Positions 19,875 to 28,168 of a stretch of 31,759 nucleotides of DNA are shown piece after piece. Position 1 is the first letter of the stretch. Each line of letters starts with the position of its first letter. Under the pieces are notes generated by a model. It searched no databases, was not told the DNA's origin, and saw nothing but the letters and a program-made list of their open reading frames with translations. The stretch is from Chloroflexota bacterium (lineage in GTDB: Bacteria > Chloroflexota > Ktedonobacteria > Ktedonobacterales > Ktedonobacteraceae), in NCBI GenBank assembly GCA_005882595.1, contig VBFM01000094.1:1-31759 (forward strand). The letters are read 5' to 3'. The position numbers were made by a program, and so were the translations under genes.

Positions 19875-20016
19875 GGCTTAAATCATCGAGCGAAATGGCC
19901 CTGGCTGAGATCATAGAGCGAAGTCGCCCTGGCTTAAATCATCGAGCGAAGTGGTGTTGCTGTCGAATGCAATCAATCGCCCCTTGCGGTCGCCCTGGCT
20001 TAAATCATCGAGCGAA
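19870..20016. repeat. Four direct copies of a 25-bp unit (greA 3' end + REP foot)
   Basis: gccctggcttaaatcatcgagcgaa at 19870, 19926 and 19992 (exact) and 19898 (3 mismatches). Confidence 0.85.
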
Positions 20017-20530
20017 TTGAGCGAATGGTGTAGTTAGTAACACCACCAGGCGTGGAGACCGTTACATGGTCGCCTTCCTGGTGTCCCATCAACGCTTTGC
20101 CAACCGGGGATTGATCTGAAATCAAGCCTGCTTTAGGATCGGCTTCAAAGGTCTCGACTATTTTGAAGGTGCGTGACGCGCCTGTATCGCTCTGCACCTC
20201 AACTTGCATGCCGATGCGCACCGCAGGCGGCCCTGTGAAATCATCATGCATATCGCCGGTCATAATCTCGGCTACAGCAAGCAAGCGCTCCAGTTGAAGA
20301 ATCTCACCCTCTACCTTCGCCTGTTCATTTTTAGCATCTTCGTAGGCGCTGCTTTCGCTGATGTCACCCGCTTCTTTCGCTTCATGGATATAATCAGCAA
20401 TCTCTTTGCGTTTTATTGTACGTAAGTAGTCCAGGCGTTCTTGCTTTTTCGCAAAGCCCTCGGGAGTTAAACGATAGACCTTTTGCTCTGACTTCGCCTG
20501 GGTGGTATCACTCTGTCCACCAATATTCAT
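20000..20530 (-). CDS. greA: Transcription elongation factor GreA/GreB family
   Basis: LTPEG...AGDISESSAYEDAK, ISDQSPVGKALMG, VTVSTPGG; ATG 20530 has a GGAG RBS. Confidence 0.9.
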   Translation of the reverse strand: MNIGGQSDTTQAKSEQKVYRLTPEGFAKKQERLDYLRTIKRKEIADYIHEAKEAGDISESSAYEDAKNEQAKVEGEILQLERLLAVAEIMTGDMHDDFTGPPAVRIGMQVEVQSDTGASRTFKIVETFEADPKAGLISDQSPVGKALMGHQEGDHVTVSTPGGVTNYTIRSIRSMI

Positions 20531-20602
20531 ACTTATCTCCTCCCTTTCAGCAAGGGAAATGGGGGCACTGCCCCGAAAAAACCTGTTAAAAACATGAAGC
20601 AG

Positions 20603-20631
20603 ATTATACGTTCTACGATACCGCACGTCAA
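20603..20631 (-). promoter_or_regulatory. sigma70 promoter for greA
   Basis: Minus strand TTGACG (20626-20631), 17 bp, TATAAT (20603-20608). Confidence 0.75.
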
Positions 20632-20691: not shown

Positions 20692-21996
20692 TTATACTGG
20701 CGTTTGTGGGTATCCCGGAACCAGCCGTCCCATGCGCATCAGGGATGCGCCGCACTCCGCGCATACGCCCTGTACGGCAGTGCGTCCATTCTTCATCGTG
20801 ATCTCGTGAGCGTTCAGCATGACCGTTTTCTTTTTACATTTCATACAATACGCCTCGATATGGGGCGCACTATGCGCCGTTTCTATGCTGGCAGGTGGCT
20901 CCTTTGCACGGTGAGGGGCGCCATTCACACCACTTGCATCAGCGCTTTCGCTCACACTCGCAGCCTGTAGCACCTGGCTAATGCCCCCTTCGCTCCATTG
21001 TAGCAGCGTCTTCACAACGATTTCTGGGAGATCCTCGTGAACGGCTCGCCCGGCCCCCTGTAGCAACGCCATCTGTGTTTGCTGCGCGCCCCAGAAGGTG
21101 CCGTGCTGGTCGGCGATATGCCGGGTGCGTTCTAAATCTCCGGCCCCCCAGATAATCAACGTCGGCTGTTGCACTTTTTCGATCTCGCGCGAGACATCAC
21201 GCACCAGCTTACCCGCGAGCAGGGCCATCGATGCATGTTCTGCACCAAATTGATGAGTAGTGGCATAGATATAATCGAAAGGCGCATCGTTGGAGCTCGC
21301 GGTTGCAGATGTCAATTGTGGCTTCTCCTGGCCTATTCCCAGGCGCGCCATCACCCGCGGGATCTCAACCAGCGAGGGATAGAGAAGCGATTTGACGGGG
21401 CCGGCTTCTAGTAACCCTGCTGTTAATACGCGTGCAAGACGTGTTTCTTCCGGCTGATCTCCGAACAAAGCTACTGGCGAAATGAGCGCCAGCCGCTCGC
21501 AAAGGCCGGGCGAAGTTGCCGCCACTGCCGCCGCATAATTACAGCTTAGCCTGCTTGCTACAATGGTGGCTGGTTGTCTCACCACCTGCGAAAGAAAATC
21601 CCGACACAACTGCGTATATACATCAGCCGAGTAATCGATATCTGGGCGGTCCGAGAGTCCAAACCCAAGCAGATCGGGGGCATAAACGCGAAAGTCTGCT
21701 GCAAGCAGGGTCATGATGCCACGCATTTCATAGGCTGACGCGGCCAATTCTGGTGTATGAAGGAGCAACAGCGGCGGTGCGTCCGGCTTCCCCGCTAGCT
21801 TGTAGAAAATATGTCCGTGCTGCCACCTGTATAAATGTGCCTCTCCAGGCAGGAGGCTTTCCAGGGGCTGCGGCGTCTCTAGCATATGCCGCAAGGCGAC
21901 AACTCCAGCGACTATAAACGCGGCCATCGCGCTCAGACCTAATAACCGTACAATTGATCGCAGTGTTCCTACAAAAGCATTTACCACGTATTTCAT
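20692..21996 (-). CDS. Alpha/beta-fold hydrolase-like protein with N-terminal TM segment and C-terminal DUF5679-like zinc ribbon
   Basis: VYAPDLLGFGLSDRP, PTLIIWG, HEDLPE; C-terminal EAYCMKCK...MKNGR..VQGVCAECG; ATG 21996 has a GAGGAGG RBS and TGcTATACT at 22023-22031. Confidence 0.8.
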   Translation of the reverse strand: MKYVVNAFVGTLRSIVRLLGLSAMAAFIVAGVVALRHMLETPQPLESLLPGEAHLYRWQHGHIFYKLAGKPDAPPLLLLHTPELAASAYEMRGIMTLLAADFRVYAPDLLGFGLSDRPDIDYSADVYTQLCRDFLSQVVRQPATIVASRLSCNYAAAVAATSPGLCERLALISPVALFGDQPEETRLARVLTAGLLEAGPVKSLLYPSLVEIPRVMARLGIGQEKPQLTSATASSNDAPFDYIYATTHQFGAEHASMALLAGKLVRDVSREIEKVQQPTLIIWGAGDLERTRHIADQHGTFWGAQQTQMALLQGAGRAVHEDLPEIVVKTLLQWSEGGISQVLQAASVSESADASGVNGAPHRAKEPPASIETAHSAPHIEAYCMKCKKKTVMLNAHEITMKNGRTAVQGVCAECGASLMRMGRLVPGYPQTPV

Positions 21997-22079
21997 ACTT
22001 GTAGTTCCTCCTCGTATACAGTAGTATAGCACAGGAGGGTTACTGATGATGTTTCCAATCGTTATGTACACTACATGCT

Positions 22080-22191
22080 CCTTGCGTCCTGCCTGAGCGA
22101 AGCGCACACCTTGCATCTTGCCTGAGCGTAGCTAGCACGCAGTGCGTTGGCAAGATGCCTTACAAGAAGCACGCAGTGCGTTGGCAGGATG
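22080..22191 (+). repeat. Hairpin element family H, two nested copies
   Basis: Inner stem gcatcttgcc (22113-22122) / ggcaagatgc (22149-22158); outer stem gtcctgcc / ggcaggat; both end in agcacgcagtgcgttggca. Confidence 0.85.
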
Positions 22192-22248
22192 TCTTTCAAG
22201 GTGCCGACATCCCGCGTAACGAGGAATGCAAAAGTTCAAGGAAGTAAT

Positions 22249-23121
22249 ATGCGAATTATACATGACCTGGATGAAATGACCGAAACGGCGCGAGGCTGGC
22301 TTTCTGGTGGAATTATTGGATTCATCCCGACGGTTGGCTATCTTCATGCCGGTCATGCATCATTGATACAGGCGGCGCGCCAGGAATGTGAATACAGCAT
22401 CGTCAGTATTTTTGTGAACCCGCTCGAGTTCGATCAAGACGAGGCCCCTATTCTCTATCCAAATAATTTGACCGGTGATATACAGTTTCTGGATAAAGAA
22501 CAGGTGGATGTGGTGTTTATTCCTCGTTTCGAAGAGATGTACCCGCCAGATTTTTCTACCTATGTGGTGGTCTTTGGCCCGGTAGCCGAACGACTGGAAG
22601 CAGCATTCCGCCCTGAACATGTGCGTGGCTATGCTACCAACATCGTCAAATTATTGCAACTTGTGCGGCCCGATATGGCCTATTTTGGGCAAAACAATGC
22701 CCAGCATGTGGCATTGATCCGTCGGCTCGTGCGTGATTTGAGTATAGATGTGAAGTTACAGGTGTTGCCGACCGTGCGCGATACGGATGGGCTTGCGCTA
22801 AGTATTCGCAATCAGGCCCTCAGTCCTGAAGAGCGGCAAGCAGCACCCCTACTGTATCAAGCGCTGCTGGCAGGGAAAGCGCTGATCGAACAAGGTGAGC
22901 GCAACCTGGCCCTCATTGAAAAAACGATGGTTGACGTAATAACGGCCTCACCTTTCATCAAGTTGGACTACGCCACTGCTTGTGACCCTCAAAGCTTCGA
23001 ACAGCCAGGTGACATGCTGCCAGAAACGCTTACTGATTTGCTGCTGGTAGTTGCGGCACACTTCGGTACTACGCGCCTCAATGACAATCTGCTCCTACGT
23101 GATGGTCACTGGCTAATCTGA
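22249..23121 (+). CDS. panC: Pantoate--beta-alanine ligase (PanC)-like protein with divergent active site
   Basis: GFIPTVGYLHAGHASL (HxGH), SIFVNP, RPDMAYFG, VRDTDGLALSIRN, RLNDN; full length. Confidence 0.8.
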   Translation: MRIIHDLDEMTETARGWLSGGIIGFIPTVGYLHAGHASLIQAARQECEYSIVSIFVNPLEFDQDEAPILYPNNLTGDIQFLDKEQVDVVFIPRFEEMYPPDFSTYVVVFGPVAERLEAAFRPEHVRGYATNIVKLLQLVRPDMAYFGQNNAQHVALIRRLVRDLSIDVKLQVLPTVRDTDGLALSIRNQALSPEERQAAPLLYQALLAGKALIEQGERNLALIEKTMVDVITASPFIKLDYATACDPQSFEQPGDMLPETLTDLLLVVAAHFGTTRLNDNLLLRDGHWLI

Positions 23122-23943
23122 CACGCCGCGTGCGGCCTGCCTTTGTCTCCAGGAGCGAGCCGCCTGGCTGACGACGTACAGGGCGGTCTCGCTACCCGAG
23201 GCTTCCCCCTTTTCAAAATCCCCCTCGCTCTGTCCCATCTGGTTCGTCACGTGGGCAAAACAGATGATCTGGTATTGCCTGGCCTGCGCCAGCGCATAGA
23301 GGGCGGCGGCCTCCATTTCCACCGCCAGGATGCCGTTTGCGCGGCACTGCGCGATCATCGCTTCCGTCTCCCTAAACGGCGCATCTGTCGTCCAACTGGC
23401 GCCCATGTGTAAGGGGAGCTGCCCCTGGTTCCAAGTTGCGCAGACCATCTCCCGCAGGGCGGGATGCAAGTGGCTGTACGGTGTGGGCGGCACATAATGG
23501 TAGCTCGTCCCCTCGTCGCGTAGGGCTTTCTCAATGAGAATCACGTAGGGAGGCGGGCCCAACGGGAGGATCTGCCCCGCAGAGGTAATGCTGATCAGCA
23601 GTTGGCATCCTGAAGCGAACAGTTCCTCGGCCACCAGCACCGCAAAAGGAGCGCCCACCACCCGGCCAATAATGCCGTAGGACATGTCCTCATGCGTGAA
23701 CGTATCCAGGCGCGTATGGTAACAGGCCCAGGTGTGGTGCGGCATGAGACGGTCGGAGGCCCGCAGGTGATCGACGAGGTCGCTGTCGGGATCAAGCACG
23801 CAGACGTCCGGAACTGTCCCAGGAGGCAGTCCTTTCTGCCGCCTGGCCTCGCGCAACAGGTTCTGCGGGGTGAATATTGAGGGGGCTTCATAGTCCCTGG
23901 GCGCGAAGAGAGGCACAACTTCGAGACCATCTTCATGATCCAT
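23113..23943 (-). CDS. Nucleoside phosphorylase-family protein (PNP/UDP superfamily)
   Basis: GAPFAVLVAEEL, SITSAGQI, ALRDEGTSYHY, WTTDAPFRET, VEMEAAAL; ATG 23943 has an AAGGAG RBS. Confidence 0.85.
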   Translation of the reverse strand: MDHEDGLEVVPLFAPRDYEAPSIFTPQNLLREARRQKGLPPGTVPDVCVLDPDSDLVDHLRASDRLMPHHTWACYHTRLDTFTHEDMSYGIIGRVVGAPFAVLVAEELFASGCQLLISITSAGQILPLGPPPYVILIEKALRDEGTSYHYVPPTPYSHLHPALREMVCATWNQGQLPLHMGASWTTDAPFRETEAMIAQCRANGILAVEMEAAALYALAQARQYQIICFAHVTNQMGQSEGDFEKGEASGSETALYVVSQAARSWRQRQAARGVSD

Positions 23944-24106
23944 ATTGTATCTCCTTTTCCTGCCGTCTAATGTACTCAAGAGTATCCACAAAGTGCCAAG
24001 AGACACTCGTGCGTCTCAATGCCGTCGTTTGCGGCTGGTGACAGCTTGGGTCATCATAGCATACACTACCGAGTGAGCTAAAGCAGGCCTCTCCCTTGCT
24101 TGCGTC

Positions 24107-24934
24107 TCACGACGACGCGTTTTTTTGCAGGACGTAGAGTGTAGGGCTGAGTTTTCCCAGGAGAATGTAGAGCGCCCAGGGGTAGTTCGCCAGAGCCACT
24201 TCATATCTCCTGGTGCCCAGCAGCTCCTGGTAGTACTCTGGCTTGCGCAGCATTCGGGCGAGTCGCATGAGTTCGCGCGATGCCCTCCCCTCGTGCTCTT
24301 CCACCCACTCCATCAACTCGCTGCCCAGCTGCTCTTTGGAATGCATCTGGAGTCCTGCCGCCTGGAATGCCGCTTCGACGACCCCTTCCTCCATGCTCTC
24401 TAAGACCAGGCCAAACGACGCATACAGCCATGCCGCTTCTTTCGGCTCCATCCGTCCTGTCGCGACAGTCGTATAGGCCAGCATGGCTCCCGCTGGTTTG
24501 AGCACGCGTGCGCACTCGGCTAGCGCCTGTGGGAGGGCAAGGACATGCATCAGCATATCGCGAGACCACAGGAAGTCAAACCGCTCGTCCTCAAAAGGAA
24601 GCGCTTCGATGTCTCCCTGCACAAAGGACACCCGGTCGCTCACACCTTCTTGCACGGCTCTGGCACGTCCTTGCTCGACGTGGAACTGGGCAACGTCCAG
24701 GCCGACAACGGCACAGCCAAAGCGCTGGGCCAGCGCACAGCTATGATTGCCTCTGCCGCTGCCGATATCGAGAACGAGCGAGGAAGAGCTGACTCCACAA
24801 GTGGAGACGACCTCGTAGAGCATACTGTGTGGGCGTGGGTGCAGGCTCTCATCCAGCGGCGCAAAGGGACCGCCCTCGTGGCTGGCCCACATATGCCTAT
24901 AGATCGCCTCCATCTGTGATTTCTTCTCTGGCAT
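24107..24934 (-). CDS. Class I SAM-dependent methyltransferase
   Basis: VLDIGSGRG, VGLD, GDIEALPFEDERFD, ECARVLKPAG. Confidence 0.9.
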   Translation of the reverse strand: MPEKKSQMEAIYRHMWASHEGGPFAPLDESLHPRPHSMLYEVVSTCGVSSSSLVLDIGSGRGNHSCALAQRFGCAVVGLDVAQFHVEQGRARAVQEGVSDRVSFVQGDIEALPFEDERFDFLWSRDMLMHVLALPQALAECARVLKPAGAMLAYTTVATGRMEPKEAAWLYASFGLVLESMEEGVVEAAFQAAGLQMHSKEQLGSELMEWVEEHEGRASRELMRLARMLRKPEYYQELLGTRRYEVALANYPWALYILLGKLSPTLYVLQKNASS

Positions 24935-24979
24935 AAGTGCATGGCCCTTCCTCTCCTCTTCCCTTTCCGGGTGTTCTCC

Positions 24980-26338
24980 TCAGGAGACGTCATGAAGCGG
25001 AGCGCCGGGGGCCTTCCGGTGCGAGGGGAGGGTTTCTCGCATCACCACGGAGACGACAACCCCAGAGAGGAAGGTCACTCCACCGATAACGCCGATGGCC
25101 CAGAAGATCCCGAACAGGTCGGCCAGGACCCCGGCCAGCAGCGCCCCGATGGCGTATCCACTGTCGCGCCAGAGCCGGTAGACGCCCACCGCCGAGGCAC
25201 GCCAGTTCGGGTGGGCGACATCAGCGACCGCCGCGAGCAGCGTCGGATAGACCAGGGCTGTCCCCAGCCCAAGCAGGACCATCGTGAGTGCCCACCACTC
25301 AAACCCGTGGAGCAGCGGCAACAGCCCTATTGTGACGCCCTGCAGGAGCATTCCTCCCACTATCATGCCCTTGCGTCCAATGCGGTCTGAGAGCGCTCCT
25401 GTCAGCAGCTGCGTCGCTCCCCACACACCCGGATAGATGCCCGCCAGCAGACCGATCTGCGCGATACTCAGACCTCCCGCGGCAAAAAAGAGCGGGAACA
25501 CCCCCCAGGCCAGGCCGTCATTCAAGTTGTTGACCAGCCCGGCCTGACTGACCCCGAAGAGCGTCCGGTTCTTCCAGGAGGTCAGCAAGAAGATGTCCTT
25601 GAATGATGGTGCTTGAAGGCGATTACCGGTGGCATCCGTCAGCGGTGGTGCTGAACCTGCCGTTGGCCCGGAGGGATATGCCAGCAGTGCTGCTTCGTGA
25701 TGGGCATGCCCATGGGACTCGCGCACAAACAGCAGCGACAGCAGCAGACCTGTCAGGGCAAATCCGATGCCGAGCAGGAATGGCTGGGGCCGCAGTGCAT
25801 ACGTTGCGGCAAGATAGCCAGCAGCAATAGCCGCGAGCGAGACCGCGCCGTAGCCTGCCGCTTCGTTGAGTCCCATCGCCAGTCCCCGGCGGGCCGGACC
25901 CACCAGATCGATCTTCATGATGACGGTGGTGGACCAGCAGAGGCCCTGGTTGATGCCGAGCAGCACATTGGCAAAGACCACCCATCCCCAGGATGGAGCG
26001 TAGATGATCAACAACGGCACGGGCAGCCCGACGAGCCAGCCAGCTACTAGCACGCCCTTGCGCCCGATACGATCGCTGAGCCGACCCGCAAAGAGATTCG
26101 CGAGCGCTTTCACCACACCGAAGCTCACAATGAAGGAGAGCACTGCCGTGGTCGAAGCCAGGCCGAAGGTGCGTTGCCCCAGCAGCGGCACGATGCTGCG
26201 CTCCAGGCCCACCATGCCGCCGACAAACGCGTTGACGATCACGAGCAGCGTGAACTGTCGCCAGTTGGCGCGCAGGCCAAGTTGCACAGCCGATGGTGCC
26301 CCTGAAGAGGAAACTATCTTCACGTCAGGAGATGGCAC
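24980..26338 (-). CDS. MFS transporter
   Basis: About 12 hydrophobic segments; GRLSDRIGRK and GALSDRIGRK loop motifs; GTG start overlaps the upstream gene stop. Confidence 0.92.
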   Translation of the reverse strand: MPSPDVKIVSSSGAPSAVQLGLRANWRQFTLLVIVNAFVGGMVGLERSIVPLLGQRTFGLASTTAVLSFIVSFGVVKALANLFAGRLSDRIGRKGVLVAGWLVGLPVPLLIIYAPSWGWVVFANVLLGINQGLCWSTTVIMKIDLVGPARRGLAMGLNEAAGYGAVSLAAIAAGYLAATYALRPQPFLLGIGFALTGLLLSLLFVRESHGHAHHEAALLAYPSGPTAGSAPPLTDATGNRLQAPSFKDIFLLTSWKNRTLFGVSQAGLVNNLNDGLAWGVFPLFFAAGGLSIAQIGLLAGIYPGVWGATQLLTGALSDRIGRKGMIVGGMLLQGVTIGLLPLLHGFEWWALTMVLLGLGTALVYPTLLAAVADVAHPNWRASAVGVYRLWRDSGYAIGALLAGVLADLFGIFWAIGVIGGVTFLSGVVVSVVMRETLPSHRKAPGAPLHDVS

Positions 26339-27428
26339 AGCGGTTCGCTCCTGCTTCTAGCTCGATCACGTCGTGATCAGGCATCAGGCCTGCTTCGTTG
26401 AGCCTCGTGATGCGTTCGTAGTTGGGCGGGGTCGGGGGAAGCAGCCTCAAAATGGTCTCGACAAACGTCGTCCGCGTCTCATGAAGAATACCGACGTGCT
26501 CATCGATCTCGGAAAGCCGCGCGCCAATCGGCTCGCCATCAAATGGCACGGGCTGGCTCGTGTGTCCTGGTAGGACGAGCGTCTCCGATGGGAGCGCGAG
26601 GAGCTTGTGCAGACTGTGGTAGAGAGAGGAAGAACGTCCTCGCGTTTCCTGCTCATCGGCGTGCAGGTCAGGACGCCCGATACCGGTGAGAAAGAGAGTA
26701 TCACCCGTAAAGAGGATGGTGTTGTTGAGCAGGTAACAGGTGCTCTCCGGCGTGTGTCCCGGCGTATGCAGCGCGGTCAACCTCAGGTGCGGGCTGGCGA
26801 GCGTGTCACCGTCGCGTATGGCCGTAAAGGGAAATGACACGCGCTGCTGATCCGGCAGAAAGAGCATGGCGCTACTGCATTCGGCAAGCTGGCGCGAGCG
26901 CGAGAGATGATCAGCGTGAATATGCGTGTCAAAGACGCTGGTGATCTGCCAACTGTACTTTGCTGCCAGGTCAAGATACACCTGCGGATCAAGCGCAGCG
27001 TCAATCACCATAGCCTCCTCACCCCAGCCGAAGAGGTACGAGAGGCAGCCTTTGCCGGTGCGCCGCACCTGGATGATGCGGACGTCGTTCGCGTGTACAG
27101 GCACTTCAGCAACATTCCAGGCCAGGCTCCACGCCTTCATCCCCCCATCGAGAGAACACGCCTCTACCCCCCGTGCAGTCAGCCGCTCGGCGGCAATGAG
27201 GCTGGTTTTGCCAGCCGCACACACGGTCACAATCGGGACATCGCTCGGAACGTCCACATCGGCAAGAGCTGCTGGATCGTGCGCTTTCAGGGCATCATAC
27301 GCATCAACATGTATACTGCCAGGAATAGCCCATTCCGCTCGTTCTGCCGTCGGACGCACATCCAGGATTGTGACGGGGTGTCCTTCTTCCAGCCAGGCTC
27401 GCAGGGTCTCAACAGAAATCGTCTGCAT
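26325..27428 (-). CDS. Rhodanese-MBL fusion (persulfide dioxygenase/ETHE1-like)
   Basis: N-terminal rhodanese LDVRP...VCAAGKTS...SLDGGMKAW; MBL motifs THIHADH, HTPGHTPES, FTGDTLF, LPGH; C-terminal GANRC. Confidence 0.88.
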   Translation of the reverse strand: MQTISVETLRAWLEEGHPVTILDVRPTAERAEWAIPGSIHVDAYDALKAHDPAALADVDVPSDVPIVTVCAAGKTSLIAAERLTARGVEACSLDGGMKAWSLAWNVAEVPVHANDVRIIQVRRTGKGCLSYLFGWGEEAMVIDAALDPQVYLDLAAKYSWQITSVFDTHIHADHLSRSRQLAECSSAMLFLPDQQRVSFPFTAIRDGDTLASPHLRLTALHTPGHTPESTCYLLNNTILFTGDTLFLTGIGRPDLHADEQETRGRSSSLYHSLHKLLALPSETLVLPGHTSQPVPFDGEPIGARLSEIDEHVGILHETRTTFVETILRLLPPTPPNYERITRLNEAGLMPDHDVIELEAGANRCAIS

Positions 27429-27442
27429 ACGTCAGACTCCTT

Positions 27443-28111
27443 TCAGACTTCGACCGGCAGCCCGAGCGCACGCCACTCAGGGACGCCCTGTTCGAGCCGA
27501 CGGGCACGATACCCACGCGCATGCAAAAGTGCCACAGCCTCATCCGCAAATATACAGTAGGGGCCGCGACAGTAAGCTACAATCTCCTTGTCCGCAGAAA
27601 GCTCTGCCAGGCGTACTTCCAACTCCGTCACCGGAATGGAGCGGGCCTGGGGGAGGTGTCCAGCAGTGTATTCCTCCGCGGGACGCACATCGAGAAGGAT
27701 GACCTGGTCGTCGCTCAGTCGGTGGAGCAGCTCCTGCGCGTCCATCGGTTGCAATTGAGTGCGGTCCTGCAAGAATGTATGCACTACCCGATCAATCTCG
27801 GCAAGCTGTGCCTCGCCCACGGTTCGCAAGGCTTGCCACATCCTGAAGACGCTTTCGTCAGCCAGGCGGTAGTGCATCGAGACGCCGTCGCGGCGGACCT
27901 CGACCAGGTGGGCCGCACGCAGCACCTGCAAGTGCTGTGAGGCATTGGCGACTGACATGCCCGTCTCCAGCGCCAGCGCTTCGACGGTGCGTTCACATTG
28001 GGCCAACACATCGAGGAGTTCAAGGCGATGGGGACTGGCCAATGCCTTGCCAATGCGAGCAAACTGCTCATAGAGCTGATTCTTAAAGGTGCGTTTCTCA
28101 CGGGTCTGCAT
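27443..28111 (-). CDS. ArsR/SmtB-family regulator fused to a rhodanese domain
   Basis: IGKALASPHRLELLDVL...NASQHLQVLR HTH; LLDVRP...GHLP...YCRGPYC rhodanese; ATG 28111 has an AAGGA RBS. Confidence 0.92.
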   Translation of the reverse strand: MQTREKRTFKNQLYEQFARIGKALASPHRLELLDVLAQCERTVEALALETGMSVANASQHLQVLRAAHLVEVRRDGVSMHYRLADESVFRMWQALRTVGEAQLAEIDRVVHTFLQDRTQLQPMDAQELLHRLSDDQVILLDVRPAEEYTAGHLPQARSIPVTELEVRLAELSADKEIVAYCRGPYCIFADEAVALLHARGYRARRLEQGVPEWRALGLPVEV

Positions 28112-28168
28112 AAAGTCCTTCCTTGTGGTCAGGAGTACGAGGAGCAATTGACTCTCTCATTTTTCTAC

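Follow-up and report, generated by a model that had tools for sequence, protein, structure and literature searches.

A Ktedonobacteraceae paralog of pantothenate synthetase with a drifting active site, purifying selection and a new invariant signature

The HxGH motif is the catalytic hallmark of the nucleotidyltransferase superfamily that includes pantothenate synthetase (PanC). HisZ, a catalytically inactive paralog of HisRS, has a class II aminoacyl-tRNA synthetase fold and regulates ATP phosphoribosyltransferase; its partner is HisG and it is genetically tied to the pathway that it serves. GluQRS (YadB), a shortened paralog of GluRS that carries a HIGH motif, has its catalytic residues intact and still activates glutamate. 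HisZ shows that adenylate-forming synthetases can give rise to pseudoenzyme paralogs; one derived from PanC would be a further variety of this kind, and no relevant paper on PanC paralogs, PanC-like proteins or PanC-derived pseudoenzymes was found in the literature that we searched. In M. tuberculosis PanC, Gln72, Lys160 and Gln164 are reported to be needed for substrate binding and formation of the pantoyl-adenylate; Asp161, Ser197 and Met40 are among the ATP contacts (PMC5772511).

The window described here, i.e. the whole stretch of 31,759 nucleotides that was analysed, corresponds to contig C85 of a MAG of 4.4 Mb with 74% completeness. It encodes, from an ATG start codon, a PanC paralog that we call PanC2 (Table 1). 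The Pfam profile PF02569 (Pantoate_ligase) matched PanC2 with 268 bits over profile positions 2-267 of 268, and the NCBIfam equivalog model TIGR00018 (panC) with 254 bits, above its cut-off of 212.75. An AlphaFold2 model built from 122 sequences had a mean pLDDT of 91 and aligned to T. maritima PanC (2ejc) with a TM score of 0.92 (Foldseek) and 43% identity in the structural alignment. PanC2 therefore belongs to the PanC family by sequence and fold homology across both domains, and shares fold, two-domain architecture, length and HxGH motif with PanC as defined by PF02569 and TIGR00018 and by the structures 2ejc, 1mop and 1iho. An earlier reading of this DNA from its letters (the sequence-only reading) had described the ATP-binding HxGH, the overall length and the domain order as intact and had proposed modelling the structure. 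The model agrees with it on all three points: HAGH occupies residues 33-36, with H33 and H36 in place of His44 and His47, and the protein of 290 aa has the full two-domain PanC fold.

PanC2 nonetheless differs from these enzymes at the residues that bind pantoate and the adenylate. We compared its motifs residue by residue with 2ejc and with 27 canonical PanC of the same class, across which five motifs are essentially invariant. The equivalents of Gln72, Lys160 and Gln164 are all replaced in PanC2, as are those of Met40, Asp161 and Ser197 (the last being I186) and the RPGHFRGV motif (Table 1), and every substitution listed in the sequence-only reading was recovered in the alignment. The equivalents of Asn69, Ser196 and Arg198 are still present. 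Since none of these positions varies among the canonical PanC of the class, the changes in PanC2 go far beyond chance.

Table 1. Features of the PanC2 locus, in window coordinates
Feature	Coordinates	Strand	Basis
greA, downstream of the hydrolase gene, in the conserved block	20000..20626	-	
Divergent neighbour: membrane-anchored alpha/beta-hydrolase-fold protein with C-terminal DUF5679 zinc ribbon; conserved syntenic partner	20692..22116	-	
Repeats of the PanC2/hydrolase intergenic region, including a direct repeat at 22113-22190	22080..22191	.	read from sequence
Shine-Dalgarno-like AAGGAAG, 4 nt 5' of the PanC2 ATG	22238..22244	+	read from sequence
PanC paralog (PanC2) ORF, 290 aa, two-domain PanC fold	22249..23121	+	profile match, alignment, model
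Residues 9-21, EMTETARGWLSGG, near-invariant paralog-specific signature; helix alpha1 and loop before strand beta1	22273..22311	+	step counts
PTVGYLHAGH: canonical PTMG to PTVG (V29 = Met40-equivalent); HxGH kept	22327..22356	+	alignment
VNPLEF: canonical VNPxQF; E60 = equivalent of pantoate-binding Gln72	22414..22431	+	alignment, site changes
RPEHVRGY for invariant RPGHFRGV; three positions changed	22609..22632	+	alignment, site changes
RPD at residues 140-142, an invariant triplet specific to the paralogs, preceding strand beta4	22666..22674	+	site conservation
FGQNNAQH for FGQKDAQQ: N149, N150, H153 = Lys160, Asp161, Gln164 equivalents	22684..22707	+	alignment; PMC5772511
LALSIRN for LAMSSRN (ATP-phosphate loop); two positions changed	22792..22812	+	alignment, site changes

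PanC2 is not an isolated oddity. More than 100 database proteins are 55-96% identical to it, those with a named source all coming from Ktedonobacteraceae, and more than 100 of its database relatives are full length. Among 61 genomes of the class, many of family f1 gave two PanC hits, one of 326-349 bits and one of 163-298 bits. We examined 20 of the low-scoring copies, from 13 genera, at the level of the locus. Most lie divergent to a gene for an alpha/beta-hydrolase-DUF5679 protein followed by greA, while the downstream side varies; the reading frame is intact at all 20 loci. These 20 syntenic paralogs form a single clade (ultrafast bootstrap 100, SH-aLRT 99), on branches several-fold longer than those of the canonical PanC from the same genomes. 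The window gene is thus an ortholog conserved throughout the Ktedonobacteraceae, a family of soil bacteria, in fixed synteny. In four genomes (G008, G025, G026 and G060) no copy was found at this locus, and the paralogs of genus g11 consist of the N-terminal Rossmann domain only, their 182 aa aligning to residues 1-174 without the SSRN loop and the C-domain. These short g11 copies lie at L017:7995-8543 and L018:7513-8061, and database representatives of 182 and 230 aa are of the same short kind.

Within the clade, the old active site has drifted. The paralog motifs vary by genus, pocket residues being stable within genera. Genus g3 has ADPLQF, YPQRLRAI, VLRNEVYT and LAYSESY, the last of these placing a Glu and a Ser where the ATP-phosphate residues of the loop should be; genus g6 has GEKGKS where canonical proteins have VNPxQF, and the G040 paralog has TISSHLHEGH and DKTMLL. 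Even a relative 81% identical to PanC2 reads LDAGH, with the first His lost, and LALSSHN. The basal paralogs of G038 and G053 have near-canonical motifs and may, judging from these, still be active. We counted parsimony steps on the tree at 19 former catalytic or pocket positions and found 2-34 changes across 140 paralogs, or 10-34 apart from the HxGH histidines and Gly158; in the 27 canonical PanC, 17 of the 19 had no change and two had 3 changes. The equivalents of Lys160, Asp161, Ser197 and Arg198 changed 10-23 times and Gly158 6 times, compared with 2 changes for each of the HxGH histidines, H33 and H36 being 98% conserved. Of the 19 positions, 16 fall at the 36th-92nd percentile of paralog site rates, with only H44, H47 and G158 lower. 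The relaxation extends to a wider active-site shell: it was not significantly greater at catalytic sites than at other sites invariant in the canonical enzyme (Mann-Whitney p = 0.09). The check on phylogeny and conservation suggested by the sequence-only reading thus yields one paralog clade in which the substitutions differ between genera. Catalytic residues are not conserved among the orthologs as they are in PanC, and the paralogs descend from an enzyme having lost residues that its catalysis requires, as pseudoenzymes do.

This drift is not accompanied by a loss of selection on the protein. Pairwise dN/dS values (Nei-Gojobori, NG86) were 0.07-0.18 for paralog pairs vs. 0.08-0.17 for canonical PanC pairs from the same genomes. 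PanC2 itself gave 0.18 and 0.16 against relatives 96% and 89% identical, respectively, and the two g11 copies with an N-domain only gave 0.095. With such values and intact reading frames, the paralogs are under purifying selection and are not pseudogenes.

The strongest constraint has, moreover, moved from the old pocket to a new signature outside the active site. Residues 9-21, EMTETARGWLxGG, show 0-2 parsimony steps across the 140 paralogs vs. 3-15 across only 27 canonical PanC, and are alike in every genus, the most divergent and truncated copies included. RPD (140-142) and NIDV (165-168) are likewise the same in every paralog genus and variable in canonical PanC, and the near-invariant set also takes in GER of the C-domain. 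Seven individual positions illustrate the shift: R15, G16, W17, L18, G21, R140 and D142 changed 0-1 times across the 140 paralogs, compared to 3 steps for W17 and 7-15 steps for the six others in the canonical set. TARGW is found in 117 of 120 near hits of PanC2, and in 11 of the top 150 representatives of 50%-identity clusters; the other 139, taken as canonical PanC, all lack it. According to the secondary structure of the model, most signature residues come just before strands beta1, beta2, beta4 and beta5. From this strand topology, the signature would be located on the far side of the Rossmann sheet from the nucleotide site, at the N-terminal edge; this face might be the PanC dimer interface. 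We saw no hint of nucleic-acid binding, pI and net charge being alike in paralogs and canonical PanC (medians 5.5 and 5.6).

The genomic distribution of the pan genes indicates that the paralog and the pantothenate pathway are not coupled. No panB or panD occurs within the window, as the sequence-only reading had remarked; in the same genome, panD is on contig C216, and contig C362 carries the second, canonical panC that this reading had proposed to look for (334 bits, with every motif canonical); panB and ilvC come after it. This panB (L001:321-1421) is interrupted by a run of N (X in the translation) and changes frame after it; a gap or a masked stretch of the assembly lies within the gene. 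For each of the two PanC copies of this genome, within its own clade, the nearest relatives in the tree are G032 and G057, so that C85 and C362 most likely stem from one organism and contamination is unlikely. The best explanation is that pantothenate synthesis in the window organism depends on the separate canonical panC-panB pair plus panD.

In family f1, panB is present in 22 of 22 genomes with a canonical panC. The paralog, on the other hand, does not follow panB: in nine published f1 genomes that have it (G015, G024, G022, G027, G037, G046, G038, G049 and G053; 77-96% complete), neither panB nor canonical panC was found. Unpublished G056, with a paralog hit that was not inspected, is a tenth such genome. 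These absences were counted in incomplete MAGs and one assembly gap could remove both genes, since the two adjoin. The paralog would have a role independent of CoA precursor synthesis, and the claim of the sequence-only reading that PanC2 is no true pantothenate synthetase is supported, the canonical panC-panB pair lying elsewhere and the paralog persisting in genomes that yielded neither panB nor a canonical panC. The panD gene was kept in all five paralog-only genomes tested. It was also kept in two f1 genomes without any PanC-family gene, and we rejected it for this reason as a sign of a beta-alanine ligase role. The panD-bearing genomes in which panB and canonical panC were not found are G039, G043, G024, G015, G022, G038 and G049, two of them without any PanC-family gene.

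Taken together, a retained fold, a drifting catalytic shell, parent-like selection and a new invariant signature lead us to favour, with some confidence, the view that PanC2 is a PanC-derived pseudoenzyme or repurposed non-PanC protein, probably with a non-catalytic binding role exerted through a new surface. We infer from its residues that PanC2 would lack catalysis, while the retained HxGH could mean that some ATP-dependent chemistry survives. The residues that contact pantoate, ATP phosphates or ribose, as well as those that stabilise the adenylate, are no longer held by selection; the copy, at its fixed locus beside hydrolase-DUF5679 and greA, has kept the fold of PanC together with the HxGH helix cap; and selection has shifted to EMTETARGWLxGG, RPD, NIDV and GER. 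The resulting surface would bind a partner protein or ligand, with PanC2 serving as a regulatory or scaffolding protein. PanC2 differs from PanC, in short, not only in a pocket that varies among orthologs, but also in having no panB linkage, in persisting without panB and in an invariant N-terminal signature that canonical PanC lacks.

The parallel with HisZ would lie in a copy of an adenylate-forming synthetase that no longer carries out the original catalysis and that selection maintains for a non-catalytic role, the PanC2 side of this comparison being a proposal. The two differ in fold, PanC2 having a HIGH-type Rossmann fold, and in that PanC2 is uncoupled from the pathway of its parent. 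Like PanC2, GluQRS is a paralog with a HIGH-motif nucleotidyltransferase fold, in some lineages reduced to the catalytic-type domain, whose task has changed; in PanC2, however, the residues that bind substrate and ATP phosphate drift, whereas GluQRS remains an activating enzyme.

Of the two options put forward in the sequence-only reading, a catalytically dead paralog fits our data best. The other, an active adenylate-forming ligase with a pocket rewired for a different acid (or amine), possibly with lineage-specific substrates, fits poorly with a pocket that varies between orthologs, and we regard it as unlikely, although it is the most serious of the alternatives. An HxGH conserved at about 98%, an intact fold with both domains (pLDDT 91) and purifying selection as strong as on the canonical enzyme are all what such a ligase would show, but they coexist with 10-23 changes among orthologs at the equivalents of Lys160, Asp161, Ser197 and Arg198, with the Glu and Ser of the g3 phosphate loop (LAYSESY) and with g11 proteins that are under selection despite having neither phosphate loop nor C-domain. 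Stability of the pocket within genera is compatible with lineage-specific substrates, but drift, including loss of the first His, persists at 81% identity, and the strongest constraint is found outside the pocket. Similarly, the panD kept in paralog-only genomes could be seen as a sign of such a ligase, but panD is also present without any PanC-family gene and so does not track the paralog. The neighbouring genes suggest no small-molecule pathway.

Slow neutral decay, in which the paralog is a redundant and functionless duplicate not broken as yet, appears very improbable. Eroded catalytic motifs, the four genomes in which the gene was not found at its conserved locus and the truncated g11 copies are in keeping with it; frames intact at 20 of 20 loci in 13 genera, dN/dS of 0.07-0.18 with the truncated pair included, more than 100 full-length database relatives and a 13-residue motif invariant over 140 sequences but variable in the canonical enzyme are not. 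The sequence-only reading had taken non-conserved substitutions to indicate decay; here the dN/dS values and the new invariant motif show that a function is maintained. That PanC2 is a working pantothenate synthetase isozyme, as automatic annotation has it, is scarcely credible: it scores above the TIGR00018 equivalog cut-off, public records call close relatives pantoate--beta-alanine ligase, a canonical panC of family f3 adjoins the same hydrolase gene and the basal G038 and G053 copies have near-canonical motifs, but Gln72, Lys160, Asp161, Gln164, Ser197, Met40 and RPGHFRGV, invariant in the canonical PanC examined, are all changed in PanC2, a canonical panC is present in the same genome, and the paralog persists where panB was not found.

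The conserved divergent neighbour of PanC2 has an N-terminal membrane helix and a DUF5679 CxxC...CxxC ribbon, with orthologs in L004-L018 and L049-L058; its real start is probably about 40 codons inside the listed ORF. At the nucleophile elbow, ASRLSCN or ASGLSCN (in family f3, AHGLAGN) stands in place of GxSxG, so the protein may, on this evidence, lack the catalytic Ser. The f3 orthologs are without the DUF5679 ribbon. A complex prediction for PanC2 with the soluble part of the hydrolase-DUF5679 protein scored 0.01, a value that speaks neither for nor against an interaction. The greA ORF as listed begins with GTG and has 208 aa, some 32 more at its N-terminus than the orthologs, which have 173-176 aa; its real start is probably an internal ATG. 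On the other side of PanC2, a GC-rich block of about 5 kb (23113-28147, 59-64% GC) separates it from an M42 peptidase gene that, in relatives (one 89% identical included), directly follows the paralog; for this reason the block looks like an insertion. Its five genes encode a PNP/UDP phosphorylase, a SAM methyltransferase, an MFS transporter, a rhodanese-MBL protein and an ArsR-rhodanese protein.

Signals as to where the paralog came from differ. In the tree, canonical PanC of family f4 is the sister group of the paralog clade (98/92), and the two have the QEC, GER and CxP features in common. Synteny points instead to family f3, where canonical panC of genera g25 and g28 is divergent to an ortholog of the same hydrolase gene (L051:1324-4114, L052:6206-8920 and L053:1722-4608); since a canonical panC sits beside this ortholog, the hydrolase-panC neighbourhood may predate the paralog. 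The paralog may be the ancestral copy at this locus, set free by the presence of a second panC, or may have been acquired by transfer. In f3 genome G029 (L043 and L044), we also observed two canonical panC genes encoding proteins 94% identical (dN/dS 0.17, motifs all intact), a pair that is a recent duplication.

We are evenly divided on the broadest form of our proposal, namely that these proteins would be the first pseudoenzyme family to arise from pantothenate synthetase and that the new surface would have a regulatory or adaptor function, possibly tied to the Ser-less hydrolase-DUF5679 protein and greA. The public label of pantoate--beta-alanine ligase is probably wrong as to the function of the paralogs. 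Because both equivalog models and public annotation give them this name, pantothenate synthesis may be credited, when the metabolism of Ktedonobacteria is reconstructed, to genomes that yielded neither panB nor a canonical panC. The new motif, being sharply defined, offers a concrete handle on what the paralog does. More generally, the data show that a core enzyme of vitamin B5 synthesis can give rise, throughout a bacterial family, to a protein that is under selection and apparently non-catalytic.
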